DNA from: a virus
Taxonomy: Duplodnaviria > Caudoviricetes
IMG/VR virus record: IMGVR_UViG_3300028194_000282
Span: 1 to 62,384 of that record
Strand: one strand, 5' to 3'
DNA: 62,384 nt
Part shown: positions 2,785 to 62,384 of the stretch, one piece after another
Layout of the letters: each line of letters starts with the position of its first letter
Numbering within the stretch: the first letter of the stretch is position 1
The notes under the pieces: model-generated
The model's database searches: none
Told to the model about the DNA's origin: nothing
Seen by the model: the letters and a program-made list of their open reading frames with translations, nothing else
Program-made: the position numbers and the translations under genes

Positions 2785-3615
2785 TTATTGTGGTCTCGGT
2801 ATGTAGATGTCAAAAGGGTTTTTATAAGCACTTACATAGTCTTGATTTTTAAACAACATACTACTTTGTTGTGGAGTTAAGTCTCTTTTGAATGACCTAA
2901 ACTGTCTGTTGCTCATATTACCAATTGCCTGCATATCCATATTAGTAAATCCGTCAGAACCTGCAGCACCTAAAACTTTATTCCCTTCTACATTTCCAAA
3001 CTTTGTCATTTGTTCAGGAGTAAATTCTAAACCTCCCACGGCTGCTTTTTGTGCTCCTATGTTTTGACCATATAAAGGCACAAATGCTGCTGCTGCTTGA
3101 GCAGTATTAGCAATACCTTGTATACCTTGTGCTTTAGCTTGTTGTGCTGCTCTCTGAGCATCTGCTGCTTTTTGTTGGTTACCTGCAACTTCTTCTAAAT
3201 CTAAAGCCACATCTAAATCTCTTAGTCTTGAATCTTCATCTACAACTTGCTGCTCAATGTTTGTCATTTCGTCAGCCATTGCACTTCTTATTCCTCCTTG
3301 ACCTGCTTGTTGTGCAGCGTATACTCTACCTGCAGTAGCTGCAGAACCTCTTTCACTTTCTACACCTGCCTCAGTAGCCTGTGCTCCCTGAACTAACATA
3401 GCTTCTCTTTCTAAATCGTAAGCTTCTTTTTTAACAGAAAGTTGTTCAGCAAAGTTAACATCTAGCTTTCCTCTTGCTGCTTGCATTGCTTTATCAGCAT
3501 CTCTTTCTGCTCGCTTCTGTGCTTTCTTTTGTTTACTTGCTTGAGAAAATGATGCTGCAGTTGTTCCTATTGATATTGCTAAACCTGCTGCTGCTATTGC
3601 CGTTGCTGCTGCCAT
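2785..3615 (-). CDS. Putative internal virion (ejection) protein
   Basis: Ala/Gly-rich hydrophobic N-terminus then Gln/Ala coiled coil, typical of podovirus core proteins. Confidence 0.6.
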   Translation of the reverse strand: MAAATAIAAAGLAISIGTTAASFSQASKQKKAQKRAERDADKAMQAARGKLDVNFAEQLSVKKEAYDLEREAMLVQGAQATEAGVESERGSAATAGRVYAAQQAGQGGIRSAMADEMTNIEQQVVDEDSRLRDLDVALDLEEVAGNQQKAADAQRAAQQAKAQGIQGIANTAQAAAAFVPLYGQNIGAQKAAVGGLEFTPEQMTKFGNVEGNKVLGAAGSDGFTNMDMQAIGNMSNRQFRSFKRDLTPQQSSMLFKNQDYVSAYKNPFDIYIPRPQ

Positions 3616-13906: not shown

Positions 13907-13938
13907 AAAAAAGGGAGTGTCTTTGAAGACACCCCCTT
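13907..13938 (-). terminator. Intrinsic terminator of the capsid gene, with the 16-bp motif as its upper stem
   Basis: Minus strand reads AAGGGG-GTGTCTT-CA-AAGACAC-TCCCTTTTTT. Confidence 0.75.
13917..13932. repeat. 16-bp palindromic motif copy 1 (GTGTCTTTGAAGACAC)
   Basis: Exact match; intergenic. Confidence 0.95.
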
Positions 13939-28500: not shown

Positions 28501-29604
28501 AGTTGCAATTCCTATTGTAACATTACCTGATGTTCCACCTCCTGTTATAGGTGATGTAACACCAACTCCTGTAATATCTCCTTGTGTAGAACTATTAACC
28601 GTAACTGAACCTGTCTTAGAGTCAGTAGTTAATGTAACATTTGTACCTCCTATTAAATTTAATGTATCATTATTTGAAGCAGCCGTCAATGTTGTTTGCC
28701 CTGATACTGTAATGTTTTTATATATAGCCTGAGATGAACCCTTATCTGCATTAGTAAGAGTTATTGTTTCGGCTGATGATTGATTAGTTGTAAACGCTGC
28801 ACCACCTGACATACCTGAACCTGCACTAATTGATATAGTAGCATTATTGGCTGCTGAAGGTATTGTTGTGCTATTAAATGCATTGCTACCAAAAGTAAAA
28901 GTTTGGTCAGTTGCTCCTGAAACACTATAAGTTAATACATTACCTGCTTTTGTAATTCCATTTAAAAAGTAATTAGGTGCTGAGGTTAGGTATCTACCAT
29001 CTAAATCAACTGTAATATCTGTTAAGCCTGAACGACCTAAAGTTAATACTCCGTCTGATGTATCAAACGCTGCACTATCTAAATAATTATTAGAACCTGC
29101 ATCTGTAATATATCCGGAGTCATTAGTCCACTGACTTATGTTTCCTCCTTTATTTGTAAATGTCTGAGCATTAGAAGCAGTTGTAGTACCGGTATTAGTG
29201 GTATAACCTTTATCATTTGCCCACTGATTGTTTGAACCACTCTTATTAGTAAATGTTTGAGTATTACTAGCCGTTGTAGTTCCTGTATTAGTGGTATAGC
29301 CTGCACCATTAGCTAACTGTTTGTTGTCAGTTATACTATTGGTAAACGTAATTGTTTTAGATGCAGATTGGTTTAACGTAAAGGTTGACCCTCCCGATAA
29401 TCCCGTTCCTGCTGCTAATGTTATAGTAGCGTTACTAACAGTTGGTAGGGAGCCGGAAGTTATGTATCCGGCTCCATTTAGCAACTGATTATTATTCGTA
29501 GGTATTGTTTGATTAGAAAAAGCTGCAGTACCTAAGCTAACACCGTCTATAGACATTGAACCCTCTACGTTAATAGGCTCTAAAAATTGAATTGTATTCG
29601 CCAT
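25582..29604 (-). CDS. Long tail fibre with internal repeats and a collagen-like domain
   Basis: Repeated GYTTNTGTTTASNxQTFTNK and GDITxV units; ~84 uninterrupted Gly-X-Y triplets. Confidence 0.8.
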   Translation of the reverse strand: MANTIQFLEPINVEGSMSIDGVSLGTAAFSNQTIPTNNNQLLNGAGYITSGSLPTVSNATITLAAGTGLSGGSTFTLNQSASKTITFTNSITDNKQLANGAGYTTNTGTTTASNTQTFTNKSGSNNQWANDKGYTTNTGTTTASNAQTFTNKGGNISQWTNDSGYITDAGSNNYLDSAAFDTSDGVLTLGRSGLTDITVDLDGRYLTSAPNYFLNGITKAGNVLTYSVSGATDQTFTFGSNAFNSTTIPSAANNATISISAGSGMSGGAAFTTNQSSAETITLTNADKGSSQAIYKNITVSGQTTLTAASNNDTLNLIGGTNVTLTTDSKTGSVTVNSSTQGDITGVGVTSPITGGGTSGNVTIGIATASKTATGALTSTDWSNFNAKTSNTGTVTSVGTTGSVSGITLSGTVTTSGNITLGGSLSLTSAQITTGLGFTPYSDANPSGFTNNTGTVKAVSQTHGGNAFTVSGSPVNTSGTLAITMAGDAKEYIDGAGDLQTFPSIPQGDITGVTAGTGMTGGGSSGSVTLNVIGSTGITANANNIAIDSTVVTKTGTQELTNKSGNISQWTNDSGYKTTDNNTQYTAGSGLSLTGTVFANTAPNIVQTTITGNAGSATKLQTARTIAGVSFNGTANIALDNKNIANSAGYTTNTGTTTASNSQTFTNKGGNISQWTNNSGYVTSSGITGISSGNTNTLTKSGTTSVTLTPNTGTVTSSSTNLATGAQIQTAINTAVTGVLKYIGTWDAASNNPALTSGKGTPGEYYIVSKAGGTNLDGITDWQLGDWAVFSDLATDAWQKVDNSSVGDITKVTAGTDLTGGGVAGDVTLNVTSSTASTGNTIAKRDASGDLNVRLIRSEYDTTNASIGFIMTQVDTASNNYVRPSTMAQVRSSLNVADGATNVTNNNQITNGAGYTTNTGDITSVGAGTGISGGGTSGAVTITNSDRGSSQAIFKTITDGKSRIRAQSNSDTITLTGCEGTSVTYDEEASSITICTDRQDLSISGTTLSIEGGNSVTLPTSTGPKGDTGSTGSQGPKGDQGDQGDQGIRGATGGQGPQGEQGEQGETGGQGIQGVKGDTGGTGAQGAKGDTGSQGPQGGTGAAGAAGKDGNDGAPGKDGAAGAAGAKGDTGGTGAQGIQGVQGDRGATGSTGSQGPQGEPGNDGKNGSDGARGATGSTGSQGPKGDQGDTGGTGSQGPQGNPGATGSQGPAGDKGSTGSQGPQGTKGDTGAAGANGTNGTNGAAGARGATGATGSQGAQGIQGNTGSQGPAGPQFPVSLDGNKDTTISRIDVDSKGGCATFQLADGSNFSLQLCLRVGEGDLPGRDPGLIDGELPNLIKG
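25783..26538 (-). repeat. Collagen-like Gly-X-Y repeat (~252 aa)
   Basis: GPKGDTGSTGSQ...GPAGPQ, Gly at every third residue. Confidence 0.9.
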
Positions 29605-35773: not shown

Positions 35774-35996
35774 CAGTGTATTGTTGTTCTTTAATAATCA
35801 TAGTGTATCCTGCTCTAGTATCATAATAGATTATATCACCTGAATCAATTACCGTTACATCTGTTCCGGGTTTTATTACTTCAGCTTTTTTATACCTAAT
35901 GTCTTTTACATCATCAGCAGAAAGTAATAAGCCTGATTCAGTCTTAACTTCTTCTTTAATTTGTTTTACTAGAATATATTTTCCTATTGGTTTCAT
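35739..35996 (-). CDS. groES: Co-chaperonin GroES
   Basis: MKPIGKYILV...KTESGLLL...GDIIYY...ISERDVV. Confidence 0.85.
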   Translation of the reverse strand: MKPIGKYILVKQIKEEVKTESGLLLSADDVKDIRYKKAEVIKPGTDVTVIDSGDIIYYDTRAGYTMIIKEQQYTVISERDVVVVE

Positions 35997-37585
35997 TTGT
36001 CTTCGTATGTTCTTGCCATAGTAATGATAGCGTTAGTAGATAATAGAGTAACTGCAACCGACACTGCGTTTTGTAAAGCACATCTTGTTACTTTTAATGG
36101 GTCTATAATACCCATCTTGTACATATTGCCATACACACCTGCCTTAACATCATAGCCTTGGTCTGCAAGTACTAAGTTTTGACCTGTAATTTCTTGTGGG
36201 TCTTTCCCTGCGTTTCTTATAATTTGATAGATTGGTGCTTTTAATGCTTCGTGCATCATATATAAAGCCATTCCTTTAGCACCTTCTTTTAACACAGGCA
36301 TTTTAGTTCCTTCATTGAATAAAGCAAGTCCACCTCCCACAACTATTCCTTCTTCTAAAGCTGAACGTACTGCACATACTGCATCGTCAACTCTATCATA
36401 TAGTTCTTTTTGTTCTAGGTCTGTATTACCTCCCACATATATTACACCTACACCACCATTTAAGGAAGCTATACGACTTAATATAAACTCTTTATCTTCT
36501 TTTTGCTTAGTGTTTTCTAAAGCTTCTCTTAATTCAGATACTCTTTCCTTTACCAACAAGACATCTTCCTCGACATCTTTTATAATAACAGTAGAGGCAC
36601 GACCAACTATAACTTTAGAGCAATGACCTAAATCTCTTTCTGTCATTAAACTCAAATCATCTCCTGTTTTCTCAGAGAAATATGTTGCACCTAAACTAAT
36701 TGCAATGTCCTGCATTAACTCGTGAGACTTATATCCAAACGATGGGACACCAATGCAACATACCTTTAACCCGTTTTTCATAACATTGGCTGCTAATGTA
36801 TTAACTACATTGCTTGATACCGGTGCTATGATAAGTAGTTTCTTATGGTCTTGTATAATAGGCTTTAATACATTTTCAATGTTTAATAGGTTTTCTATTG
36901 GAGCATCACATACCAATACATAGCAATCCTCTAAAACACATTCATCTTTCTTTTGGTCATTAACAAACAAAGGAGATTCATAACCTCTTTCAATTTTTAA
37001 TCCGTTTGTAGTTTCATAATAAGTCTTAGAAGTCTCAGACTTGTCAACTGCAACGATACCGTCCTTACCAACCTTTTCATAAACCTTTGCGATTATATCG
37101 CCAATGAAAGAATCATTGTTTGCAGAAATAGATGCTACGTTCTTTAGTGTCTTTGAAGACACTTTTTTAGAATGCTTCTTTAAGTTCTTTACTACCTCAT
37201 CAGTTAGTGTGACAAGTTCTCTAAGTACCTCTGTCTTATTTTCGTCTAAATCCCTACCTGCGTTGACTAACGCTTCGGTTAAAACAATTGCAGTTGTTGT
37301 TCCATCTCCTGCTTGTGTTGCAGTTCTATCGGCTGCCTCTTTCATTATTCTTACTGCTAAGTTCTCTACAGGGTCTAACAATGAAACAGATTTAGCTACA
37401 GTTACTCCATCTTTGGTAACCGTGATTCCGTGTGTGTGCTGAGGTGATTCTATTAAGACTGTTTGTCCTGCAGGTCCAAGTGTTGACTTAACTGCTTTTG
37501 CTATTGTTTCTATTCCGTTATAAAGCTTACTTCTTCCGGATTTGTCAAACAATAAATTCTTAGGTGTGTATCCTATTTCCGACAT
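35993..37585 (-). CDS. groEL: Chaperonin GroEL
   Basis: STLGPAG, TKDGVTVAK, AGDGTTTA, GIVVGGG, GIIDP.KV; start at MSEIGY; promoter box at 37609-37616. Confidence 0.95.
   Translation of the reverse strand: MSEIGYTPKNLLFDKSGRSKLYNGIETIAKAVKSTLGPAGQTVLIESPQHTHGITVTKDGVTVAKSVSLLDPVENLAVRIMKEAADRTATQAGDGTTTAIVLTEALVNAGRDLDENKTEVLRELVTLTDEVVKNLKKHSKKVSSKTLKNVASISANNDSFIGDIIAKVYEKVGKDGIVAVDKSETSKTYYETTNGLKIERGYESPLFVNDQKKDECVLEDCYVLVCDAPIENLLNIENVLKPIIQDHKKLLIIAPVSSNVVNTLAANVMKNGLKVCCIGVPSFGYKSHELMQDIAISLGATYFSEKTGDDLSLMTERDLGHCSKVIVGRASTVIIKDVEEDVLLVKERVSELREALENTKQKEDKEFILSRIASLNGGVGVIYVGGNTDLEQKELYDRVDDAVCAVRSALEEGIVVGGGLALFNEGTKMPVLKEGAKGMALYMMHEALKAPIYQIIRNAGKDPQEITGQNLVLADQGYDVKAGVYGNMYKMGIIDPLKVTRCALQNAVSVAVTLLSTNAIITMARTYEDK
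37147..37162. repeat. 16-bp motif copy 3 (inside groEL, encodes VSSKT)
   Basis: Exact match. Confidence 0.95.
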
Positions 37586-37639
37586 ATTATATTTAATTAA
37601 AGTTTGAACAAAGATACACATTTTAATTATCTTAGCCTT

Positions 37640-38281: not shown

Positions 38282-38355
38282 GCACCTATAGCTTAATTGG
38301 ATAAAGCAACTGCCTTCTAAGCAGTAGAGTCTAGGTTCGATTCCTAGTAGGTGTA
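38282..38355 (+). tRNA. tRNA-Arg(TCT)
   Basis: Acceptor GCACCTA/TAGGTGT, anticodon arm ACTGC-CTTCTAA-GCAGT, T-arm CTAGG-TTCGATT-CCTAG; CCA not encoded. Confidence 0.95.
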
Positions 38356-38356
38356 C

Positions 38357-38387
38357 AAAAAAAAGGGACGGTAATCAGCCGTCCCTT
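38357..38387 (-). terminator. Intrinsic terminator (possibly bidirectional)
   Basis: AAGGGACGG/CCGTCCCTT stem next to an A8 run. Confidence 0.75.
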
Positions 38388-39783: not shown

Positions 39784-39799
39784 GTGTCTTCAAAGACAC
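39784..39799. repeat. 16-bp motif copy 5 (GTGTCTTCAAAGACAC)
   Basis: Exact reverse-complement form; intergenic. Confidence 0.95.
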
Positions 39800-39815
39800 A
39801 AAAAATCCAATCACA

Positions 39816-40766
39816 ATGACAAACGAAATTCAATACACAATCGACAACAGAAGAGATAGAGCAACGATGCAAAGTTACCATCGTTCTCCATCTCCGAAAG
39901 ACCATTCAAAAGGTGCTAAGGATGGCGATATTGCTAACTTAAAATCAGCAAGCAAACGTAATCTAATTACGATAGAGGGAAACACTGAATCGAAGTTCAC
40001 TATCGGAATGGAAGTAGAGAAAGCTAGATTTCAAAGAGGTGCAGTAAAAGAGTATTCTTTATTTGCCGGATTTGAAAGAGATAGTTCTTGTGGCTATGAA
40101 GCTATAACGCATATCTTACCATTGTTACCTAGTGGAAAATGGAGAAACAAAGTATTCAATATGATGTTTGAAGCTAGAAACATTATTGAAGATTCTAAAA
40201 GTCCTAGTGACCTACAATGTGGTGGTCACATTACAATAGGTGTCCAAGGGATGACCGGTGCTGAAGTTATGAAATCAGTTAGGAAAAATATGGGGATTGT
40301 ATATGCATTGTTCTTTAAAAGATTAAACAATGGATATTGCAGAAGTAACTTAACTATGCTTGACAAGAACGAAGTTCAAGGTAGTGATATGATGAACGGA
40401 TTCGGTAGGTATTCAGCAGTGCTAGATAAAGGTGCAACAATCGAGTTTAGATTAGTTAGCAGATTTCAATCGGTAAAGCAGATGATGAGAAGATACGAGT
40501 TAATGTATGAGTTACTTGATTTCTCAATCAACAATCCAAATGGAAGCCACAATGCTTTCCTTAGAAAAGTTACACCAATCATCAAGTCTATGTACAATGG
40601 CGATATGGCTATGGTAGAGCAGAAGTTATCAATGGCTAAATCATTTAGAACAATGATTCTAAAGAATAAGGTTAACCGAGATGTAATTAACTATGTAGAC
40701 CCAATGCGAAGAATGGATGCTCGCAAATGGTACGATAGAGACCTACAAAGGAATGGAAGTAGATAG
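39816..40766 (+). CDS. Putative amidoligase (COOH-NH2 ligase family)
   Basis: IGMEVE, DSSCGYE, CGGHITIG, TIEFR motifs. Confidence 0.7.
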   Translation: MTNEIQYTIDNRRDRATMQSYHRSPSPKDHSKGAKDGDIANLKSASKRNLITIEGNTESKFTIGMEVEKARFQRGAVKEYSLFAGFERDSSCGYEAITHILPLLPSGKWRNKVFNMMFEARNIIEDSKSPSDLQCGGHITIGVQGMTGAEVMKSVRKNMGIVYALFFKRLNNGYCRSNLTMLDKNEVQGSDMMNGFGRYSAVLDKGATIEFRLVSRFQSVKQMMRRYELMYELLDFSINNPNGSHNAFLRKVTPIIKSMYNGDMAMVEQKLSMAKSFRTMILKNKVNRDVINYVDPMRRMDARKWYDRDLQRNGSR

Positions 40767-40792
40767 TCTAACAAGGGAGCAGAGATGCTCCC

Positions 40793-40843
40793 TCTGTCCA
40801 CAAGTGAGTGCTTGTGCTGATGAGTTCAAAAGAACGAAACAGA
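40793..40843 (+). ncRNA. Type III hammerhead ribozyme
   Basis: Stem III TCTG/CAGA, GUC cleavage triplet, stem I CACAAG/CTTGTG, CUGAUGA core, stem II GTTC-AAAA-GAAC, GAAA. Confidence 0.9.
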
Positions 40844-40866
40844 AAAATTAATTTAATCTAATCACA

Positions 40867-41067
40867 ATGAAAAAAGTAATCAAGTTATCAAGCAATGCAA
40901 CAATCGTATTAGTAACATTATTCGTTTATAGTTCAGCTATAAGAATGATAATTCAGATGGTGTCTGATATGGGATGGAAGTCTCTTGCATTGTTACCGGT
41001 TTGGGCATTCATAGGTTTTCTTATGTATGTTTCAGCAAGTCTAATAATCAAACAAATCAAATCGTAA
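40867..41067 (+). CDS. Small 2-TM membrane protein
   Basis: Two hydrophobic segments. Confidence 0.65.
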   Translation: MKKVIKLSSNATIVLVTLFVYSSAIRMIIQMVSDMGWKSLALLPVWAFIGFLMYVSASLIIKQIKS

Positions 41068-41246
41068 TGGAAGAGAGACAAGACTATTACAAAGTAAGAT
41101 ATGCCGGTAAGTTAATTAAAGTCTTGCCGGCACATTCTAAATGGCAAGCAATGGATAAGTTATATTCTTATTACATTGATAGATACCCTTGGATAAAACG
41201 AGAAAAATTAACTGCCGTAAAGTATGGTAAAAAATTTAAAAATTAA
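41067..41246 (+). CDS. Hypothetical protein (MEERQDYY...)
   Basis: TAATG coupling with the upstream gene. Confidence 0.6.
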   Translation: MEERQDYYKVRYAGKLIKVLPAHSKWQAMDKLYSYYIDRYPWIKREKLTAVKYGKKFKN

Positions 41247-41250
41247 AGTT

Positions 41251-41478
41251 ATGAATTACGATGATTGGAAGTTAGCAAGTCCTCCGGAGGGAGGATTGGT
41301 TAGTTCTTGTTGTGGCGAAGACTACAACGAAGAATATGAATCAGACCTAGAGTTTGATTATTTTGTTTGCGTTTCTTGTCAAGATGAGTGCGACATCATA
41401 GAAGATTATGAGTACGAACAGAATCGAAGAGAGTCTTATTTAGAAGACCTTGCCGATGAACAAAGACTAGAACGATGA
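41251..41478 (+). CDS. Acidic Cys-containing small protein
   Basis: SSCCG...CVSCQDEC putative Zn ligands. Confidence 0.6.
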   Translation: MNYDDWKLASPPEGGLVSSCCGEDYNEEYESDLEFDYFVCVSCQDECDIIEDYEYEQNRRESYLEDLADEQRLER

Positions 41479-42056
41479 AGAAGTTTATAATACTAACAAG
41501 TATATCTGTGATTGGATATGTTGGAGCAGATGTGTCTTTGAAGACACAATCTGTGTCGATGAAAGAGGAGGATTTATTTCCTCCTCAATCATTGGTCGAT
41601 GTCCTGACAGTGGATACGGTTCAGGATACAATACGAATCATTAATTCGTTTGACATAGACACGACCTTGACATTCAACGACTTTATAGAAGCAGTCATAT
41701 ACATAGAAAGCAGAGGTGATAGTCTAGCATACAACACAAAAGAAAAAGCAGTGGGTGTGCTACAGATTAGACCTATAATGCTCCGGGAAGTTAACCGGGT
41801 GCTAAGAAAAAATAAAGTTCCTGGCAAGTATGTGCTACAGGATAGATACTCACAGGAGAAGTCAATCGAGATGTTTGAAATTATGGCTGAACAAGTTAAT
41901 CAAGATGAGTTAAGTCAGATGCAGTTCTTTGAAATTGTTGCACGAAGGTGGAATGGTGGAAGGAGAGGCGACAAAAAGAAAGCTACAATAAAGTATTGGG
42001 AGCGAATTAAAAATCAATTAAATATAATAAATTATGGAAAGTTCAGTAATCAGTAA
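41475..42056 (+). CDS. Lysozyme-fold (transglycosylase-like) protein with N-terminal signal/anchor
   Basis: IYIESRG...AVGVLQI...ARRWNGG...YW. Confidence 0.65.
   Translation: MKKFIILTSISVIGYVGADVSLKTQSVSMKEEDLFPPQSLVDVLTVDTVQDTIRIINSFDIDTTLTFNDFIEAVIYIESRGDSLAYNTKEKAVGVLQIRPIMLREVNRVLRKNKVPGKYVLQDRYSQEKSIEMFEIMAEQVNQDELSQMQFFEIVARRWNGGRRGDKKKATIKYWERIKNQLNIINYGKFSNQ
41532..41547. repeat. 16-bp motif copy 6 (in gene, encodes VSLKT)
   Basis: Exact match. Confidence 0.95.
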
Positions 42057-42339: not shown

Positions 42340-42355
42340 GTGTCTTCAAAGACAC
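42340..42355. repeat. 16-bp motif copy 7 (in the 5' leader just after the promoter)
   Basis: Exact match. Confidence 0.95.
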
Positions 42356-42377
42356 TCCTCATAAAATCAAATCAATT

Positions 42378-43671: not shown

Positions 43672-43723
43672 TGTTATGTCTAAATAAATTCGTACTTTAG
43701 TACAAATCATAAATCAAATCATA

Positions 43724-47039: not shown

Positions 47040-47156
47040 AAAGAAACGAGTTAAGTGGTTCAAAGTTCCAATGGAATGCAAGACTCGTGAGGAAAAAGAT
47101 AATCTTATCCTCTATATAATAAACAATTTGGAACAAACAATTAAAATCAATTAATT

Positions 47157-53998: not shown

Positions 53999-56900
53999 TT
54001 AATAGTCACTCATTTCATCTTTTAATTCTTTTCTCAAGTCTTTCATTTCTTGTTTGATATCATAAATATCAGAACCTTTTCCGTATATATCTTCATACAA
54101 TTCAGGGTCGATTAGTTTCAAATCAGCCTTACTTGTTTTCTTTTTCTTAGTGGTTGTTTTCTTTTTCTTAGTACCATATCCCGGTCTGTAAGATGGTGTA
54201 ACACCCGTTGCATCATAAATGTTATCATCATCGAAATCACCTCCTAGAATCTTCGCTACACCTATTGGTGAATCTAACTGCATACCGGCAATGATTTCAA
54301 AAATTGGTTGCACAACTGCGAGTATTGAGCCATCTTCTTTCATTTCTTTATATGCCTTGTCTACTTTTCTTACTACAGATGTAAGTGGATTAACACCATC
54401 ACTAATAGGTTTTCTATCTCCGGATATTTTAGCCACTGCACTTTCTATACCTGCTCCTAAAATAGGAACTGAATAAAGAAGGTTCAATCCAAGTGCAGCA
54501 TCTCTTAACGCTCTTAACGCTCTGTCACGCTCATCTCCTTTACCCACAAGTAATGCAGGTGCATAAGACATAGCAGTAAACATTACGTTGGCTACGGCAT
54601 AATTAAGAACAAACTTTCTATAGTCTGATTTTCCTGCTTTACCACTTACTATTGCTGAACCTGCTTGACCTACGTTGTTCATCATAAGAAATAATGAACT
54701 ACCAAACATAGTAAAGAATCTATTAAACACATCTGTTGATTGCTGCATTGGGGATTTTTCAGTTGCTCTTCTAGTTTGTTGAGTTGAGTTAAACTCATTA
54801 AACAATCTTAAAGCTTCTGCTTTACCCATACCATTTGCTATCGCTCTGTTGTATACTGCTTTGTATCCAAGTACACCAAGTATATCTCCTGCTACTGTTG
54901 TAAAACCTTTAACTTTTTCAAAACCTCTAGATAATTTACCTTTTCGACCTTGGTCAGCTTTAAGACTCTTATAAGTTCTACTTCCTGATTCAAGACCAAA
55001 TATATCTCCTGCTAATCCTTTTTTCAAACGAGCATCAAAAGTTGCAGAAATATCTCTAGACTCTTTTATTTCACTAGGTAGTCTTGCTATAACTTTAAAG
55101 TAATCGTAAGCAAAGTTTATTAAATCATATCCCGGAATTTTATTAGGTTGAGGAGTAGCAGAATACTTTTCAAATGCTTGATAAAATGAAGATGCTTGCT
55201 TAACTATCTGCACAGGTTTAAGTGCTAAAGCAAACCCTGTAAACTTGTTTTGTATCCAAGATACAACATCTTGGTCAACACTTGGACCTGAGTCAGGATT
55301 GATTGCATAGTTTAAATTCGATAAGAACAATCCTTTTAAACCCGTTTGTTCTAAAAGTAAATTAATAGATGGGTCTTTTAATACTTGACTCATTTCTTTA
55401 ACACCAACGGCATAAGCTTTGTACTTTTCCATTTGATTAACGTGGTCTTCCATCACCTCGCTAAATGATTGTCCTATTTCTACATCATTTGTTTTATCAA
55501 ATCTTTCTTTAAAAGCAGGTGAGAACTCTGTATCAAAAATGTTTTGGAACTGACCTGCACCAATCATCTCAGCAGTTATCTGTTCTTTGATTGTTCTTGT
55601 TGGGAAATAGTTCTCTACAAACCCAAGACCTATATCATTTACTTGAATGTATACATCATTAGTTTCTTCAAAGTATGAGTTACTTAAAAAGTCTACTGCT
55701 TGGTCTACTAAAGCTACATTATCGGGACCTATAAATGTTTTGATACCTTCGATATCTAACTTCTGTCTTTCTAATTTTTTACCCTGTATTTTATTTTTAG
55801 ATAAAGCATAGAGCCTCATTGCTTGGTCTTTGTTTAATCTTTTGTTAGCAGGTTTCCCGGTCTTGCTATTTATCATAGTAAACTCTTGTGTCTCTGTTCC
55901 TAAAGAATACTTCCAATCAGTCCAATCTTTTTTGTTTGTAGATTGAGCCATTGAATTCATTTTAGATTCAGTCCTTCTAATTCCTTTTAGAGTATTCTCA
56001 TCAAAGTCATTTAGTCTGTCAAAAAATATTCTAGTAAACATACCTCTTGTGTTGCCATCTAGTTTTCTAGCTACAGTTCCAAGGTGTGCAATTTTGTTTT
56101 CCATAAACTTAACTACTCCATTTGATTTTAATTGTTCTCCATCATAGAATGTTTTAAAGAATGTTCTTAAACCACCAAACAAACCGTTCTTCTCAAACCC
56201 TTCTCTTATTTTTTCTTGTCTTGTTTTAACTTGGTTTTTGTTTAACGGATTACCGTCTTCGTCAAACAAGAATTCATAATTGCTTTCAATCTCAGCTTTA
56301 AATTCTTCTTTTATTTCATTAAGAGCCTCTCTTCTTGTGTTCCTACGGTTGTTTAAATTAGCTATAGACTCTGAACTTGTAGCCTTTACATCTACAAATA
56401 AATCTTCTACCTGTTGTAAATCCATATTCAACACATCACCAAAAGTGTCGATAGCTAATTGTCTGTCAAGTAATACTTGTTGTTTAGACGTTAACTTTTT
56501 ACCGGCTTCTTTATCAATTAAAGCTTGTTCGTAAGCTTCAGGGTTGATAGATTCTTGCAAATCAATAATGGCTTGTAAGTCACCTTTCTTAGCTGCATTC
56601 AAAACTTTCTCTACTTGCGTAAAGTAACTTTGTCCCGGTGCATCTAATCCTGCCGACCTTCTTTTACCACTCGCAGTTTTTCTTACTTTAACTTTACTCT
56701 TAACTAGTTTAGCTATTTTATCTATTAATATATTTCGTTGCACTAATCTTTGTGCTTCTACCTGTGTTAACACTTCACTCACTTTACCTACAAAGTTTTT
56801 TGGAGTAGTTGTGTTAATGGTTTTTAATAAACTATTAATAGCCTTGTTGCTATAATTTTTAGAATTAGGTAATAGCTTTCTTATAATTGTTCTCATTCTT

Positions 56901-59900
56901 CTCTGAGCATCAGCTATATTGTCTTTGCTTATTTTTCTTTGCTTAAGATTGTTTTTAATTTGACCAATCTCTTTAGATACTCTTTGATTGGTTCTAATAC
57001 CAAGCATTCTATCTAATGCAACTGTTAACTCTAATTGTGTTTGTTCAGGTTGCACTTGGAAGATAGGATTAGCTTTTAAAATATCTAAAGCTTTTTGTCT
57101 TACCTCAGCAAATGATTTAGTTCTTTCCGGAACTCCTCGTCCAACTCTTTTGCTTCCTGAAAAAGCAAACTCATTTATCTTTGCTCTAACTTCATTAAAC
57201 AATTTGAATCCAACTTTTGCACCACCATCTACATTTCCAAACTCTCTTGGCAGTGGCTTAGTAAGGTCTATATTAACAACCATTGCGTTATTTATATCCT
57301 TAGCCTTAAAGCCTCTGTTTTTTAATACCACTCTTATAGACTCATCATTTATAAACTGCTCTCTACCTTGTTGAATAATACTCTCCATAGAGATATCAGA
57401 ACTAAACATAGCTTCAGGATTTTTCAAGGCTATCATCTGTTCATCTGTCATCTTGATTTCTTTTCCTGCAAAAATATCTGCAAGTGCAGTACCTAAGAAT
57501 TGGTCTAGAGTTAAGTCTTGTATCTCTTGTTCACTTAAGTCTGTTGATAGTTTAAACTTTCTTTGTATGTATTGCCACATACCAAGAAGCCATTCTTGAA
57601 ACTTAGATTTAACTGAAGCATCTGCAATGGTCTGTCCTTTGTTACCAATTAAAATAGCCATCGCTTCATTAGTTGCTTTAGTAACATCACCATTAAATCT
57701 TTCAAGTTGTGTTTTAAAAGTATCAGTTTGTTGCACTAATTCTGCACCCTGCTTGTATATTTTTCTTCCTTGTTCTGTTGTCTGTAAATAGTCTGTCCAA
57801 ACGTGACCCATCTCGTGAATAGATGTGTTGAATAAAGCAGACTCTGAGTTGTGTACTTCAGGGTTAATATAAATATCCCCGTCTACTGTAACACCATATA
57901 CTACTTCGTTTCCTTTTAAATACTTAGTCACATTGTCTTGTGACATTACATTATTAAATGAGTTAGCATCGGTATTAATTACAACACCGGGAAATGAAAT
58001 ATTCATAAATGCATTAAGCTTATCTACATTGCTCGGATTAGAATTTGCAATTACTCCAACATAATCAAATGATGGGATACCAATCCCTACTCCTGTTTGT
58101 TGTGCTCTTAATGTTTTGGTAGATGTTGGCTTCTTCTTACTTGCTTTTTGTTTATCAGTGTCAGTTGAAACTTCTGTTGTCTTTTGTTTTTCGCTTTCAA
58201 TTAGTTTTGAAAACACTTTCCCATAAGCTTTCGGATACACTTTAGCCATCTGTTGAGGGTTCTCTAGAATACCTATAGACTTTCCTCTAACTCCATACTT
58301 ATAGTTAGGATGTGTAGTTTCAACAACACCGGGATTCAAAACGTCAACACCAACAATAGAGATTACATTTCCAATAGGAACATTTCTTAATTGTGGGTCT
58401 GTTACAACATCAGTTATAACACCTATGTTTATTAAATCAGTTTTAGTACTTACACCTTTAAGTAAAACTTGTGGTACTGCTTTGGTTTTAGCATTAACTG
58501 TTCCTGCTTTTTTAGACTTCTGATTAGGTGTATTAGCCTTACCTGTTGTAGCGAGTCTTATTAAATGACTTCTAACCGGCAACGGTAAGGTTTGAATAAA
58601 TTCATTACTAAAAACATCATCTATGCTTTTAGGATTTAATTTCTCAATAGCATCTTGTAATTGCTGAAACTCACTCAACTCTTTTGTTGGTTTTGCTTTA
58701 GCTTGTTGTCTAGCTACTTCGGCAGCAATCTCTGTTTTTAAAACAGGTATAGCTGCTTTTCTATTTGTCTCAGGTAATGTTTTAAGATTATCAAGCAATA
58801 CTCTAGATACTGCTTCATTTGATATCATAGCATTCTCACCCATCTTAACTACGTTCATAGGAACTAAGCCATTGTATTCAGGGTTTGCTGCCCACCAAGA
58901 ATCAAATACTTCTTTATTGTTTTGATATACTTGTTCGGCTTTGTTTATTGTGGTCTGTGCTTCTTTCTCAGTAACATTTGCCCAAGCTGCATTCTCATTT
59001 CCTGTTGTTCCGTTAAAACCTACTGCTCCTTTTAAGTTGTCTATTGTGTTGCCTGTCGTGGAATTCACTACGTTCCCCGTAGTTAGTTGGTCGCTTATCG
59101 TAAAAATAGTTGGTATACCTTTAATTACTTCTAGCTTAGTAATCTTAAGTGGGTTATCAGTTCTTGTGTTTAACTCTTCTACATTTATATCTGCAGACTC
59201 TTCTGTGCTTTCAATAACTGTTTCTACATTAGGAGATTCTATCTCGTTAATTTCTGTAGTTATGTCAATCTCATCAGGACCTACATTATCAGTATTGTTT
59301 TCGTTGTCAGTTTGAATTTTAAAATCAACCTTTGGTTTTTTACCATCTAGTGATGCTTCCAAGTCAGCCACCTCTTGTGCTTGAACATCATTATCCATTA
59401 CTGACTCTTCTTGATTTAGTGTCTTTGAAGACACTCCATCTTCTGCAGTAGTTTGTACAATGTCTGTTGTGGTTTCAGTAGGTGCTGCTTCATTAGTTAC
59501 ACTCTCTGCTTCATTAGTTGTAGTCTCAGCAGCAGGAGTTTCAAGATTACCTTCATCAACAACAAGACTTCCATCATCTGATATCTTTACTTTCTCTTGT
59601 ATAGGAGCAACCTTAGCCTCCACCATTTTATTAGCTAAGTATTGAGCAGTTTCATCATCATTATCTATAGATGCGTTTAAACGACCTAAGTCTCTTGGGT
59701 CTAACTCATTTATATAATTTAGAAACTCTTCCTTAGAAACCTCTGTAAACTGCCCTAGCTTACCTCTAAATCCTTTTTGGATTCTATATGTTTGCTTTCC
59801 TGCTCTTAAATCTGTACCTGCATTTTGTTCGCTTGGAGATAGCACACCCTCTCCTGCTAGTCTAGTTTCCTGACTAGGGTCAAGTAAAGTTTTAGTGCTA

Positions 59901-62384
59901 ATGATTTCAGCTAACTCTGAATTTATTTGTTTTAGTTTAGGACCAAACACTGCTTTTCTGTTTGGAGTACTTGATAGTTCTTCTTTAGCTTGAAGCAAAG
60001 TCATTACTCTAGCTTCTAATTGCGTAGCGTTCTTACCTCTAAATCTTTTTCCATACTTAGATGTCTGCAATAATTCCATTGCAGTTTTTCTTACCCCTAC
60101 ATTTTGTTGTATTAGTTGGTTTGTCTCTGCATCTATCTTGCCTAACTTTTCCATATTGTTTGCCCAAGCCGATATCTGACTATCAGTGGACAACTCTTTT
60201 GACATAAAATTTATGTTGGTTAAGTTAGTGGCTAATTCTAAATCATTTCTTGACCTAACTTCTAAAGCTAAGTTAATACTCATATTAGATGTATTGTTTC
60301 CAATACCACCACCCATCTCTGCAACAATTTCTTTCCAATCTAAATCATCACCAACATTCATTTGTGCCAAGTACTCTCCTGTACCTTCTCCTATTGGGTC
60401 AGCAATAAGTCTTTCAGCAGTTAGTGCTGCTATTCTTTTACCTCTTGTTGCAACTGAACCGGTTCTAAGTAAGTTACCTGCTAGTTTTGCAGTAATTAAA
60501 TCTACAATGGCAATTGGTATACCTCTTTTTAAACCTCTTTCTAATCCTTCATCCCATACATCTTGGTCGTTTAATGCTGCTGCAACTGACTCAGGGTCTG
60601 TTATATCATAATCTTGATTTGTCATAGCCTCTATCATTGCATTGGTATATTCCATTGCGACTGATGTTGATGCAAAACCTGTTCTAAATCCCCAAATACC
60701 ACCCGTTGCTGCACCTGCTCCTGCAGTTACAACACCACCGGGTCCTGTAACGAATCCTGTAGAACCAATTGCAAATCCTGTACCTATACCTGCCAAGGTT
60801 GTACTTGCTATAATTTTAGAACCATAGGGAGCCATCATAGCCAAACTCTGTCCTGCTAATGTTGTTGCCCACTCTAAAGGGTTGTCTGATATAACATCCC
60901 AACTTTCGTCAAATCCGTTAGCGTTACCCCACCTTGTCAATACTCTAGACTTAGTGCTTGCTCTATTTTCTAAGAATCCTACAATTTGTTCAGCAGCTTT
61001 CTTGGTAGACTCTGGGTCATCTAAATCGTAACCACCCAATAGTTCAGGAAACATTGATGCCATAAGAATAACATCCCCTGCTTTACCTCTAGCTAAACCG
61101 TTTTGAATTTCTGCAGTAAACCCATTCCAATTATCTGAGTACTCTAACTGTGCACTCTTGTCGTGTTTCATTGTATAATAAAGCTGAGAGTTCTCATAAA
61201 CATCTGCAGCTTTTTCAGATTGAGTTAAAGCTAATTGATATGCTTCTTTAGTTTGATTTATTAAAGCAGCCTCTTGTTCATCCTTTGGAACTATAGAGTT
61301 TAGGTTGTTTGCTTTGACACCAAACATTAATAAAGAAGCTTCTTCAACTCTATCTTGTTCTATTCTAGCTTTACGATTAACTTGTATTGCTCTACCTGCA
61401 GATTGTTTGTGTTGCTTTGCTAAAAACAAATCAAATTCTTCACGAACTAATTCAGTATCATCATTTAAGTAATCATCTTTAATTTCTTCATACCTAGTAG
61501 TTACTTCATCTAAAACTTCATCATAATCATAACGAAGCTTTCCGTTCACATATAAACTAGAGAATTGTTTTTGTTCTTCAGGAGATAAATCTTCTTGTTT
61601 GAAATTAGGATTGTTTTCTAAAAAGTCTTTTAATCCTTTTATTTCTTGGTATTCATCTATAATCTTTCGTTCTCTATTATAGTCTAAACCTCTCTCATCA
61701 TAAAAAGCTTTAGCTTCAGCATCTTGTGTGCTTACATTTTTCCAAGAACCTGCAGCAAAATCATCTGCCTCTTCTTTGGTATCAAACTTAAAAACCTCAC
61801 CTCTTTCTTGAGCAAGTGCTAAAGCCTGTCTAAAGGGTAGTTCATCCCAATACAATGGATTAGATGTGTAGCTATTAGGGTCTTTAGGAAATAAGGTTGG
61901 TATAACTATATTCTGTCCGTCTAATGTTCCTGACTGAAAGTTAGTTGCAGAGTGTCCACCACCTTTATTTGTTCTACCAACTTCTCTTAAGTTTTTTGCT
62001 CTAATTGCTTGAGTTACTTCATCAGCTACAGGAGCATCCTCCTCAAATTCAGTAATATTATTTTTAATAAAATTCTTTAACCTCTGTGCTTCTGTAATCT
62101 CTGTAGAATTTGTAAAAGGGTCAAGGTCTATTGTAATGGTATTAGCACCGTCAGGTGAGTTTACAATTACTGCATCACCAATTCCTGTTTCCTCAAAACC
62201 AAACCCGTATTTTTTAAAGTTGTCTATTAGAAAAGGAACAACTTCTTCTTCTGTTTGGTCTATAAGAGCAGCATCTATCTTGCTTATGTCACTTTGGAAA
62301 CCTTCGCTGCTTGTTATGCCTAAAGCTTGTGCTTCAGCCATTTCTCTTGCTTGTAGTTCTGCAAGTCTTTCTCTTTCTTGTTGT
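53999..62384 (-). CDS. Giant virion protein (~2958 aa including 1..689) with HExxH metallopeptidase motif
   Basis: Uninterrupted ORF; HEMGH at 57863-57877 with downstream NEAMA; Gly/Ala-rich hydrophobic segment. Confidence 0.85.
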   Translation of the reverse strand, partial: QQERERLAELQAREMAEAQALGITSSEGFQSDISKIDAALIDQTEEEVVPFLIDNFKKYGFGFEETGIGDAVIVNSPDGANTITIDLDPFTNSTEITEAQRLKNFIKNNITEFEEDAPVADEVTQAIRAKNLREVGRTNKGGGHSATNFQSGTLDGQNIVIPTLFPKDPNSYTSNPLYWDELPFRQALALAQERGEVFKFDTKEEADDFAAGSWKNVSTQDAEAKAFYDERGLDYNRERKIIDEYQEIKGLKDFLENNPNFKQEDLSPEEQKQFSSLYVNGKLRYDYDEVLDEVTTRYEEIKDDYLNDDTELVREEFDLFLAKQHKQSAGRAIQVNRKARIEQDRVEEASLLMFGVKANNLNSIVPKDEQEAALINQTKEAYQLALTQSEKAADVYENSQLYYTMKHDKSAQLEYSDNWNGFTAEIQNGLARGKAGDVILMASMFPELLGGYDLDDPESTKKAAEQIVGFLENRASTKSRVLTRWGNANGFDESWDVISDNPLEWATTLAGQSLAMMAPYGSKIIASTTLAGIGTGFAIGSTGFVTGPGGVVTAGAGAATGGIWGFRTGFASTSVAMEYTNAMIEAMTNQDYDITDPESVAAALNDQDVWDEGLERGLKRGIPIAIVDLITAKLAGNLLRTGSVATRGKRIAALTAERLIADPIGEGTGEYLAQMNVGDDLDWKEIVAEMGGGIGNNTSNMSINLALEVRSRNDLELATNLTNINFMSKELSTDSQISAWANNMEKLGKIDAETNQLIQQNVGVRKTAMELLQTSKYGKRFRGKNATQLEARVMTLLQAKEELSSTPNRKAVFGPKLKQINSELAEIISTKTLLDPSQETRLAGEGVLSPSEQNAGTDLRAGKQTYRIQKGFRGKLGQFTEVSKEEFLNYINELDPRDLGRLNASIDNDDETAQYLANKMVEAKVAPIQEKVKISDDGSLVVDEGNLETPAAETTTNEAESVTNEAAPTETTTDIVQTTAEDGVSSKTLNQEESVMDNDVQAQEVADLEASLDGKKPKVDFKIQTDNENNTDNVGPDEIDITTEINEIESPNVETVIESTEESADINVEELNTRTDNPLKITKLEVIKGIPTIFTISDQLTTGNVVNSTTGNTIDNLKGAVGFNGTTGNENAAWANVTEKEAQTTINKAEQVYQNNKEVFDSWWAANPEYNGLVPMNVVKMGENAMISNEAVSRVLLDNLKTLPETNRKAAIPVLKTEIAAEVARQQAKAKPTKELSEFQQLQDAIEKLNPKSIDDVFSNEFIQTLPLPVRSHLIRLATTGKANTPNQKSKKAGTVNAKTKAVPQVLLKGVSTKTDLINIGVITDVVTDPQLRNVPIGNVISIVGVDVLNPGVVETTHPNYKYGVRGKSIGILENPQQMAKVYPKAYGKVFSKLIESEKQKTTEVSTDTDKQKASKKKPTSTKTLRAQQTGVGIGIPSFDYVGVIANSNPSNVDKLNAFMNISFPGVVINTDANSFNNVMSQDNVTKYLKGNEVVYGVTVDGDIYINPEVHNSESALFNTSIHEMGHVWTDYLQTTEQGRKIYKQGAELVQQTDTFKTQLERFNGDVTKATNEAMAILIGNKGQTIADASVKSKFQEWLLGMWQYIQRKFKLSTDLSEQEIQDLTLDQFLGTALADIFAGKEIKMTDEQMIALKNPEAMFSSDISMESIIQQGREQFINDESIRVVLKNRGFKAKDINNAMVVNIDLTKPLPREFGNVDGGAKVGFKLFNEVRAKINEFAFSGSKRVGRGVPERTKSFAEVRQKALDILKANPIFQVQPEQTQLELTVALDRMLGIRTNQRVSKEIGQIKNNLKQRKISKDNIADAQRRMRTIIRKLLPNSKNYSNKAINSLLKTINTTTPKNFVGKVSEVLTQVEAQRLVQRNILIDKIAKLVKSKVKVRKTASGKRRSAGLDAPGQSYFTQVEKVLNAAKKGDLQAIIDLQESINPEAYEQALIDKEAGKKLTSKQQVLLDRQLAIDTFGDVLNMDLQQVEDLFVDVKATSSESIANLNNRRNTRREALNEIKEEFKAEIESNYEFLFDEDGNPLNKNQVKTRQEKIREGFEKNGLFGGLRTFFKTFYDGEQLKSNGVVKFMENKIAHLGTVARKLDGNTRGMFTRIFFDRLNDFDENTLKGIRRTESKMNSMAQSTNKKDWTDWKYSLGTETQEFTMINSKTGKPANKRLNKDQAMRLYALSKNKIQGKKLERQKLDIEGIKTFIGPDNVALVDQAVDFLSNSYFEETNDVYIQVNDIGLGFVENYFPTRTIKEQITAEMIGAGQFQNIFDTEFSPAFKERFDKTNDVEIGQSFSEVMEDHVNQMEKYKAYAVGVKEMSQVLKDPSINLLLEQTGLKGLFLSNLNYAINPDSGPSVDQDVVSWIQNKFTGFALALKPVQIVKQASSFYQAFEKYSATPQPNKIPGYDLINFAYDYFKVIARLPSEIKESRDISATFDARLKKGLAGDIFGLESGSRTYKSLKADQGRKGKLSRGFEKVKGFTTVAGDILGVLGYKAVYNRAIANGMGKAEALRLFNEFNSTQQTRRATEKSPMQQSTDVFNRFFTMFGSSLFLMMNNVGQAGSAIVSGKAGKSDYRKFVLNYAVANVMFTAMSYAPALLVGKGDERDRALRALRDAALGLNLLYSVPILGAGIESAVAKISGDRKPISDGVNPLTSVVRKVDKAYKEMKEDGSILAVVQPIFEIIAGMQLDSPIGVAKILGGDFDDDNIYDATGVTPSYRPGYGTKKKKTTTKKKKTSKADLKLIDPELYEDIYGKGSDIYDIKQEMKDLRKELKDEMSDY
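59419..59434. repeat. 16-bp motif copy 11 (inside giant gene, encodes VSSKT)
   Basis: Exact match. Confidence 0.95.
62187..62384. repeat. Terminal overlap copy 2 (same as 1-198)
   Basis: Direct comparison. Confidence 0.97.

Follow-up and report, generated by a model that had tools for sequence, protein, structure and literature searches.

A type III hammerhead ribozyme behind a hairpin in an intercistronic gap of a tailed-phage genome, and its probable role in cutting the operon transcript

Introduction

What a hammerhead ribozyme does between two genes of a phage operon is the question raised by IMG/VR virus record IMGVR_UViG_3300028194_000282 (Duplodnaviria; Caudoviricetes), which was analysed as a whole, as one contig of 62,384 base pairs (bp), referred to below as the window. 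On its plus strand a sequence of 51 nucleotides (nt) with the form of a type III hammerhead stands in a 100-nt gap between two open reading frames (ORFs) and directly follows a hairpin. According to the excerpted text of a 2019 review, the purpose of hammerheads in phages and bacteria is still open (PMC6765202). Type III is usual in infectious circular RNAs, and type I has been described as usual for bacteria and phages (PMC13725137, also in excerpt).

At issue are whether the motif is a real ribozyme, what its cleavage would do to a polycistronic RNA, and what the adjoining hairpin is for. The answer argued for here, and judged probable as a whole, is intercistronic self-cleavage by the hairpin and the hammerhead acting as one module.

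Results

The ribozyme is located at 40793–40843, with the predicted cut between C40798 and C40799. The 5′ strand of stem III (40793–40797, comprising UCUG at 40793–40796 and U16.1 at 40797) pairs with 40839–40843 and is followed by C17 at 40798, the nucleotide 5′ of the scissile bond. Stem I with its loop 1 (UGAGUG) occupies 40799–40816, where CACAAG(U) at 40799–40805 and (G)CUUGUG at 40810–40816 form six Watson–Crick pairs and a U·G pair. The core strand C3–A9 (CUGAUGA, 40817–40823) leads into stem II (40824–40835), in which GUUC at 40824–40827 and GAAC at 40832–40835 form four pairs starting at G10.1–C11.1 and are closed by loop 2 (AAAA). The last element, at 40836–40843, consists of G12-A13-A14 and A15.1 (GAAA, 40836–40839) and the 3′ strand of stem III (CAGA, 40840–40843). 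All the conserved hammerhead core nucleotides are present (C3 U4 G5 A6 N7 G8 A9, G12 A13 A14, the A15.1–U16.1 pair and H17), in agreement with the earlier sequence-only reading of this DNA, which had recognised the core elements in this order and at this place. The topology is that of type III: loops close stems I and II, stem III is open, and covariation backs all three helices. The position that the same reading had given, between two genes, was confirmed (gap boundaries 40766/40867); the motif is on the coding strand, and the gap was found to be fully used by a 7-nt spacer, the hairpin, the 51-nt ribozyme and a 23-nt leader.

A descriptor for type III hammerheads was written for this study (CUGANGA, GAAA and UH; stems of at least 4, 3 and 3 pairs; G17 disallowed), and it found a single site on both strands of the whole window. 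In 300 first-order Markov randomisations it gave eight loose matches in total (about 0.03 per window), none of which had stems as long as those of the real site.

Related loci (43 in number) were retrieved from IMG/VR with the 316-amino-acid (aa) protein encoded upstream of the ribozyme, at 36–77% identity, and the descriptor recognised 29 hammerheads among them. Twenty distinct copies were aligned with MAFFT; the rows had been pre-selected for pairing, so that the percentage of paired bases in this alignment means little. Covariation among relatives, which the sequence-only reading had named as a way of checking the motif, was observed as compensatory changes in all three stems, 11 of the 16 pairs being changed on both sides. 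These were six of the seven pairs of stem I, with up to six pair types per position, three of the four pairs of stem II, and two of the five pairs of stem III (A15.1–U16.1 included), the other three of which were invariant. The core strand C3–A9 was invariant or nearly so in the 20 copies. The covariation score was 0.729 versus 0.238 in shuffles, none of 500 shuffles reaching a value as high, and with the partners slid by 1–3 columns the score was at most 0.13.

A covariance model (R1) built from the 20 copies, that of the window included, gave 45 matches of 52–76 bits in the window and in 36 of the 43 related loci, all on the gene strand; the window copy, itself among the source sequences of R1, scored 75.4 bits. 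In 32 of the 36 positive loci the ribozyme lay 30–160 nt past the match end of the same upstream gene, and in the remaining four (L022, L026, L041 and L042) it lay behind a GATase-GGACT gene. A less circular check used IMG/VR copies chosen only by the pattern of the core plus stem II (at least 134 stretches, 80 of them used). The UH site and stems I and III were also carried by 61 of the 72 distinct copies thus chosen, as compared with 30 of 3600 flank-shuffled controls. Statistics on copies were taken from 73 non-redundant viral copies. Position 17 was C in 64 of these, A in eight, U in one and G in none, the descriptor itself having excluded G. Loop 1 was mostly UG(A/U)GU(G/A) and loop 2 was NAAA in 72 of the 73; this conservation of both loops is consistent with a tertiary contact between them.

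Whole-record searches of nine related records revealed one to three strong copies in each, clustered within at most 3.4 kb and on one strand, and the window has one copy in its whole 62-kb genome. Models involving a circular RNA or an excision were rejected because of this single copy. Taken together, the covariation, the matches to R1 and the result of the flank-shuffled controls lead to the conclusion that the sequence at 40793–40843 is almost certainly a real hammerhead under selection.

The hairpin, AGGGAGCA-GAGA-UGCUCCCU, extends from 40774 to 40793, has 7–8 bp, is not followed by a U-run and overlaps stem III at T40793. The sequence-only reading had described it as abutting the ribozyme and lacking a U-tract; that description holds, and the hairpin proved to be a conserved part of the unit, since a stable hairpin ending at stem III precedes nearly every copy in the relatives and likewise in unrelated phage contigs from the pattern scan. 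A folding energy of −8 kcal/mol or better was obtained for the 30 nt immediately before the ribozyme in 58 of the 73 viral copies, as compared with two at −95 to −66 and three just downstream, and the mean minimum free energy (MFE) is −12.3 kcal/mol just upstream, −3.1 at −95 to −66 and −1.7 immediately downstream. The last paired base of the hairpin is 0–2 nt from the ribozyme in 65 copies. Hairpin sequences differ fully between lineages, for example GGGAGCA/UGCUCCC here and GGGGGGAAC/GUUCCCCCC or GGGGCUUCGGCCCC elsewhere; judged from these sequences, what is conserved is a structure at a position and not a sequence. After cleavage the upstream RNA is predicted to end in the hairpin followed by 5–8 nt, a tail length derived from the total ribozyme lengths of 49–55 nt. 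Pairing of the hairpin loop GAGA with the UCUG that follows it, as a pseudoknot, was considered by eye and rejected, as it would have just three of four pairs and a 4-nt loop and would compete with stem III.

For the main role of the hairpin, capping of the 3′ end created by cleavage is given about even chances. A rather unlikely alternative is that it serves mainly as a folding aid or insulator and not as an exonuclease block. By stacking coaxially on stem III it would keep the 5′ strand of that stem from the upstream coding sequence, and a stem III of only 4–6 bp would thus form fast enough for co-transcriptional cleavage, with which this alternative is compatible. The absence of any unpaired base between hairpin and stem III in 53 of the 73 copies agrees with such a role, as do the shortness of stem III (the totals of 49–55 nt imply 3–6 pairs beyond U16.1–A15.1) and, in the MFE structure of the window, a competing pairing of ACA at 40771–40773 with UGU at 40795–40797 that the stable hairpin limits. 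However, hairpins of this type, often tipped with GUGUCUUCAAAGACAC, also follow stop codons by themselves at junctions of the window and its relatives that have no ribozyme, which argues for a role of the hairpin independent of the ribozyme, and a hammerhead candidate in a cultured Elemovirus lacks an abutting hairpin.

Hairpins of another sequence are numerous in this genome. The palindrome GTGTCTTCAAAGACAC, of the form GTGTCTT(CA/TG)AAGACAC, is found in 11 copies of 16 nt each in the window versus 0.3 expected (starting at 13917, 21041, 37147, 38897, 39784, 41532, 42340, 44673, 47430, 51468 and 59419). In eight of the 11 copies the central CA reads in the direction of the neighbouring genes, and several copies come immediately after a stop codon. 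At 13917 (minus sense), behind the capsid-like gene, the palindrome is lengthened and a U-run comes after it, as in a classical terminator. In many relatives the tip of the hairpin before the ribozyme consists of the palindrome; the pre-ribozyme hairpin of the window differs from it. Candidate functions of the palindrome are those of an RNA end cap, a terminator core or a protein site.

These copies bear on a further explanation, trimming of the 5′ end of a primary transcript, which is considered very unlikely. A promoter would then be situated in or just before the hairpin, possibly a hairpin-type promoter for a phage RNA polymerase, and the hammerhead would remove the triphosphate leader. 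The excess of the palindrome in the window, with its place before the ribozyme in many relatives, could be so understood, and on a speculative view the 2780-aa ORF of the window, which has no family match, could be a virion polymerase. Moreover, the hammerhead candidate of Flavobacterium phage vB_FspP_elemoE_10-3D is placed between divergent genes, with the first gene of an operon starting 15 nt after it, and a halovirus hammerhead is placed at the 5′ end of a major transcript, according to the excerpted report (PMC3088659). Against it, the upstream stop codon and the hairpin are separated by just 7 nt, the hairpin of the window is not the palindrome, and the copy at 13917 is a textbook terminator with its U-run. 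A Bacteroidota-type promoter motif, TTTG-N17-23-TAnnTTTG, has eight matches in the window versus 5.1 expected, none of them near the ribozyme, and sigma-70-like matches are not enriched (60 versus 71.9 in shuffles). A cut 6 nt past the hairpin also suits formation of a 3′ end better than initiation.

Downstream of the ribozyme, the leader of the next gene (40844–40866, plus strand) is G-free, A/U-rich and unstructured, and over the 73 viral copies the first ATG follows the ribozyme at a median distance of 23.5 nt. The ORF that it precedes (40867–41067, plus strand) encodes 66 aa with two hydrophobic stretches and opens a poorly conserved block that extends to 42377. When the 43 related loci were searched by tblastn, the genes flanking the block were found in 34 (g39140), 43 (g39816) and 37 (g42378) of them; the numbers for the ORFs of the block were two (g40867), one (g41224), 13 (g41475) and four (g42034). 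Short, fast-evolving ORFs are hard to detect by tblastn, and this sensitivity may explain part of the variability of the block. These sequence comparisons place the ribozyme at the left border of the weakly conserved small genes.

The same border was seen at the DNA level. Homology with one related locus (L001) runs from 39099 through the hairpin, the ribozyme and the leader to 40882, 15 nt into the ORF, and resumes at 41072; in another (L018) the local alignment is limited to 40794–40883, at 84%; and in a third (L003) the alignment is contiguous across the ORF at 40867–41067. It is conceivable, if unlikely, that the hairpin, ribozyme and leader are primarily a mobile regulatory joint, in which a near-invariant stretch of 25–30 nt would act as a homology patch between co-infecting phages that swap accessory genes, while RNA cleavage would make any inserted gene expressible. 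The location at the border of conserved genes and a variable block, the limits of homology in L001 and L018, the clustering of one to three copies on one strand in relatives, the near-identical cores in contigs of very different sizes and the varying genes flanked by prophage hammerheads in the excerpted report (PMC3088659) would all accord with such a joint. On the other side are the contribution that tblastn sensitivity may make to block variability and the contiguity of L003 across the ORF; no recombinant pair with a breakpoint inside the ribozyme has been demonstrated, and catalysis alone fully explains the conservation of the core.

The place taken by the ribozyme is filled differently at other junctions. 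Ribozyme-free junctions of the same operon consist of a hairpin, then a G-poor, AAAUCAAAUCA-like leader, then ATG, and in the window the palindrome forms such ribozyme-free hairpins on the plus strand at 39784–39799, before the gene for the 316-aa protein, and at 42340–42355, before the GATase gene. Among seven ribozyme-free related loci, two (L009 and L015) have in this slot the palindrome and a long bulged hairpin, and two others (L017 and L021) have the palindrome and a minihelix resembling an acceptor stem and T-arm, with GGUUCGAGUC. An acceptor-stem/T-arm-like minihelix is also present in L037, behind a different GC-rich hairpin, and in L033 and L035 two short hairpins are followed directly by the GATase gene with no inserted genes. 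An Rfam scan in E-value mode and ARAGORN named nothing at the slot of these seven loci. The minihelix could be a processing signal of the RNase P or RNase Z type, and different structured RNAs sharing one slot would fit a site of RNA processing or of end formation.

The bulged hairpin (L009 ~3446–3520, L015 ~3443–3515) is bounded by ACCAC...GGTGGT and has an inner GC-rich stem and an AGAAAC loop. The minihelix, which contains GGTTCGAGTC, was located behind the homologue of the 316-aa gene (L017 ~3383–3460, L021 ~3374–3440, L037 ~3450–3495). At 1702–1736 in L033 a DUF805b RNA motif was recorded with Rfam (39.0 bits, threshold 35.6). In the window, G-poor leaders with the AAAUCAAAUCA-like motif and no Shine–Dalgarno sequence precede plus-strand starts at 39800–39815, 40844–40866, 42356–42377, 43672–43723 and 47040–47156. 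Leaders without a Shine–Dalgarno sequence are as expected for a host among the Bacteroidota, the presumed host group of the phage.

The gene upstream of the ribozyme (39816–40766, plus strand; stop codon TAG at 40764–40766) encodes the 316-aa protein and has homologues in all 43 related loci. The protein gave no match in Pfam or PHROGs at E ≤ 0.001 and, in Pfam at E ≤ 10, only DUF6179 (0.12); none of 15 homologues matched Amidoligase_2 at E ≤ 0.1, and a profile search against the sequences of PDB gave no match. Its AlphaFold model (pLDDT 85, pTM 0.86) had as top Foldseek matches solely glutamine synthetases, YbdK, PafA and glutamate–cysteine ligases (best E 1.1e-3, TM 0.27–0.36), and PF12224 occurs in 12% of the members of a neighbouring Atlas cluster. 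From the model, the protein is probably a glutamine-synthetase-like carboxylate-amine ligase. Given the lack of a family match, the weak Foldseek matches and PF12224 in the neighbouring cluster, the label of amidoligase used in the sequence-only reading is reasonable and weakly supported: the structural matches and the cluster speak for it, the missing Pfam and PHROG matches against it. That reading had also called the downstream product a membrane protein, which it may be, to judge by eye from the two hydrophobic stretches. The replication and recombination genes on the same strand suggest the early operon in which it placed the locus.

The plus-strand block in question (~37.6–53.9 kb) contains genes for a Sak annealing protein, a PD-(D/E)XK nuclease, a BT4734-type primase, a helicase and a GATase-GGACT fusion, and the minus strand carries genes for a portal, a large terminase, a capsid-like protein, collagen-repeat tail fibres and GroEL. 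The GroEL-type chaperonin gene is found at 35993–37621 (minus strand; PF00118, E 3.7e-55). Behind a tRNA-Arg(UCU) at 38282–38356 (plus strand), a strong hairpin resembling a terminator occupies 38363–38387 of the opposite strand. The 2780-aa ORF (53999–62341, minus strand) gave no match in Pfam or PHROG; by its size and position it might, speculatively, encode a virion-packaged enzyme such as an RNA polymerase.

GenBank relatives of the primase are found in phages of Flavobacterium, Polaribacter, Cellulophaga, Nonlabens and Maribacter, the closest (69% identity) being from an uncultured podovirus, and near-identical DNA was found in marine or seawater metagenomes of 11 studies. The primase relatives and the metagenome matches together indicate that the genome is probably that of a marine podophage of Flavobacteriia, the host being assigned through these relatives. 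A blastn search of 39800–41900 against GenBank phages gave no match, and one of 40774–40866 gave noise only (E 0.2–3). Public runs, 24 in number and all as assembled contigs, were also considered, four of them being mapped onto the window. Two of them labelled as RNA-Seq (X7 and X10) showed even, DNA-like coverage with contigs bridging the ribozyme site. No sequence variants within 40793–40843 were listed among the public runs.

Discussion

Intercistronic self-cleavage by the hairpin and hammerhead module, which the sequence-only reading had also proposed, with a hairpin-protected 3′ end upstream and a 5′-OH leader downstream, would proceed as follows. The ribozyme would be transcribed within the plus-strand replication and accessory operon, as half of the module. 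While RNA polymerase crosses the gap, the hairpin would form first and stems I and II next; the 3′ strand of stem III would then close the three-way junction on the five bases after the hairpin, the conserved loops 1 and 2 would dock, and the RNA would cut itself between C40798 and C40799. The upstream product, the message of the ligase-like 316-aa protein, would end in the hairpin with a 6-nt tail and a 2′,3′-cyclic phosphate, and neither 3′ exonucleases nor polyadenylation should act well on its capped end. The downstream product would begin with a 5′-OH on C40799, paired in stem I, and continue through the G-free leader to the start codon at 40867. The cut would thus separate the fate of a conserved gene from that of the variable small genes behind it, with no need for a host RNase.

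That the hammerhead cleaves itself in infected cells, and thereby processes a polycistronic RNA, is quite likely. The motif, its conservation, covariation, strand and position, its association with the hairpin and its spacing from the start codon were established here; transcription across the site, cleavage, the chemistry of the ends and the effects on stability are inferred. The chemistry of the ends, a 2′,3′-cyclic phosphate and a 5′-OH, follows the established mechanism of hammerheads. The expected consequences for stability follow general knowledge of bacterial RNA decay (3′ exonucleases and 5′-end-dependent decay), mostly gained in Escherichia coli and Bacillus.

Several observations weigh against this explanation. 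An Rfam scan of the whole window at gathering thresholds reported the tRNA-Arg only and not the ribozyme. With the Hammerhead_3 model (RF00008), run in E-value mode on 201 nt, the site reached 18.1 bits (E = 0.17), the gathering score being 48.5, so that the Rfam check with Infernal that the sequence-only reading had suggested failed at threshold. The local alignment to RF00008 omits stem III at this ribozyme, and the low score is a limit of the curated model and not the absence of a structural feature. The ViennaRNA MFE structure contains the hairpin and stems I and II and lacks stem III; the hammerhead secondary structure is above the MFE by 1.0 kcal/mol for the 51-mer and by 1.6 kcal/mol with the hairpin. 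An MFE structure without stem III is usual for junctions held by tertiary contacts, yet it is no positive evidence. No copy was found by whole-record search in five other related records, four of them at least 90% complete, or in the closest GenBank phage, MW202828.1. As the search is shown to work by the copies found in nine positive records, these copy-free relatives indicate that the ribozyme is dispensable.

Core variants belong to the same group of observations. A close relative, L002, has A9U in the core (CUGAUGU), and its copy may be disabled. In 11 loci (L004, L007, L010, L011, L013, L016, L026, L038, L039, L041 and L042) a U·U is present at 10.1–11.1, and in L040 an A·A; in this sub-lineage stems I and III still covary, which suggests that the mismatch is a tolerated natural variant adjacent to the core. 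The A9U and U·U copies may nevertheless be slow or inactive. The expected stability effects are taken mostly from E. coli and Bacillus, while the host here is probably a member of the Bacteroidota. Finally, the sole public run recorded as a metatranscriptome (X20) covered 11 of 30 bins and included 40294–40444, with nothing at the ribozyme; the public runs speak neither for nor against transcription or cleavage at the site.

The sub-threshold Rfam score and the absence of the ribozyme from some complete relatives would also be expected of a chance match or of a decayed relic without present function. Covariation, positional conservation, strand bias and the flank-shuffle control make that explanation highly improbable. 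Most of the alternatives considered are compatible with self-cleavage between the genes.

Beyond the single locus, a wider interpretation of the hairpin and hammerhead module may tentatively be put forward. The hairpin would be a functional fourth helix that stacks on the short stem III and then caps the upstream mRNA, and the hammerhead of 49–55 nt with its hairpin would constitute a distinct and widespread cut-and-cap punctuation cassette. The near-invariant core would be the joint at which small accessory genes are exchanged, the cassette would be interchangeable in its slot with host-dependent signals such as plain hairpins or the tRNA-like acceptor/T-arm minihelix, and it would also be present in many genome bins of Patescibacteria.

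The pattern of the core plus stem II was recorded in at least 131 stretches of prokaryote genome bins, 80 of which are included here (L197–L276). Their titles are mostly those of Patescibacteria (Saccharibacteria, Paceibacterota and others), a mix of taxa that may reflect database order. For these 80 of the at least 131 stretches, 77 of the 81 distinct copies are full type III hammerheads and 43 of the 77 have a stable hairpin just upstream. Coarse word searches of the literature found nothing linking hammerheads to Patescibacteria. In two short IMG/VR records, hammerheads with the same loop types were seen at 44–93 of 366 nt (L131; 62.8 bits with the phage-derived model R1) and at 1–45 of 457 nt (L140), so that small replicon-sized records share this loop design. 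A candidate hammerhead of type III, with a CUGAAGA core (38.8 bits), was located in the cultivated Flavobacterium phage vB_FspP_elemoE_10-3D, at 28914–28966 on the minus strand of MT497078.1 (L330, 1501–1553); within the divergent intergenic region it precedes the opening gene of a leftward operon by 15 nt, and it has no abutting hairpin.

The latter phage is a possible experimental system. The present locus is a clean test case, with a single canonical ribozyme in a 100-nt gap and a defined hairpin and leader, and the slot offers 36 natural sequence variants as well as natural knock-outs that hold other RNA elements. Should the hairpin cap the cleaved 3′ end, the module would be a host-independent equivalent in phages of the RNase III punctuation of T7, and a compact natural part for the design of operons. 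As the type III model of Rfam misses this ribozyme family at threshold, the family is under-annotated in marine viromes.

With regard to known systems, the ribozyme agrees with RF00008 (clan CL00010) in the identical core CUGAUGA/GAAA/A15.1–U16.1/C17, the three helices with stem III open, a 4-bp stem II with an NAAA tetraloop and a 6–7-bp stem I with a 6-nt loop. It differs in its location in the operon of a double-stranded DNA phage, in its abutting 5′ hairpin and in its score (18.1 versus 48.5 bits).

Hammerheads of phages are already known. According to the excerpted text of Perreault et al. (2011, PMC3088659), prophage hammerheads flank genes and cleave in vitro within polycistronic constructs of ~2 kb, one set being active in vivo after cloning, and in a halovirus a hammerhead precedes a start codon by 13 nt and has a cleavage site coinciding with a mapped 5′ end. 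Like those phage and prophage hammerheads, the present one is intergenic and on the coding strand, the one to three copies of its relatives seem to flank small, non-constant genes, and the proposed role is the same, namely the cutting of long phage transcripts into gene-length mRNAs; unlike them, in so far as the excerpt describes them, it occurs in the window as a single copy. The HHphage ribozyme of haloviruses HF1 and HF2 (the same source) shares with it the position a few nt upstream of a start codon in a viral early region. As excerpted there, HHphage is a core variant that requires high salt and stands at the head of a transcript, whereas the ribozyme of the window is canonical and placed inside an operon, behind a stop codon. 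The excerpted parts of PMC3088659 make no mention of a constant abutting hairpin, a fixed spacing from the start codon, an interchangeable slot or a place at the border of a variable block. Literature on a hairpin fused 5′ of phage hammerheads was not found in the likewise coarse word searches, and prior publication is possible.

The intercistronic RNase III sites of T7 and T3 offer a functional resemblance only. A host enzyme cuts the early transcript there inside a hairpin, and a hairpin is left on the 3′ end of the upstream mRNA. Cutting between cistrons and a 3′ hairpin on the upstream RNA would be common to both, whereas the hairpin of the window has 7–8 bp as compared with ~20 bp or more, and the cut is predicted to be a self-cut just behind it. 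In RiboJ, a synthetic insulator, the hairpin is placed 3′ of the ribozyme and serves the downstream gene. The hairpin of the window, by contrast, is placed 5′ and would stay with the upstream RNA, and it is natural and not engineered. With RiboJ the present module has in common a hammerhead joined to an extra hairpin and, going by the excerpted description of RiboJ, an expression of the downstream gene that would be independent of the upstream sequence (PMC6206723).

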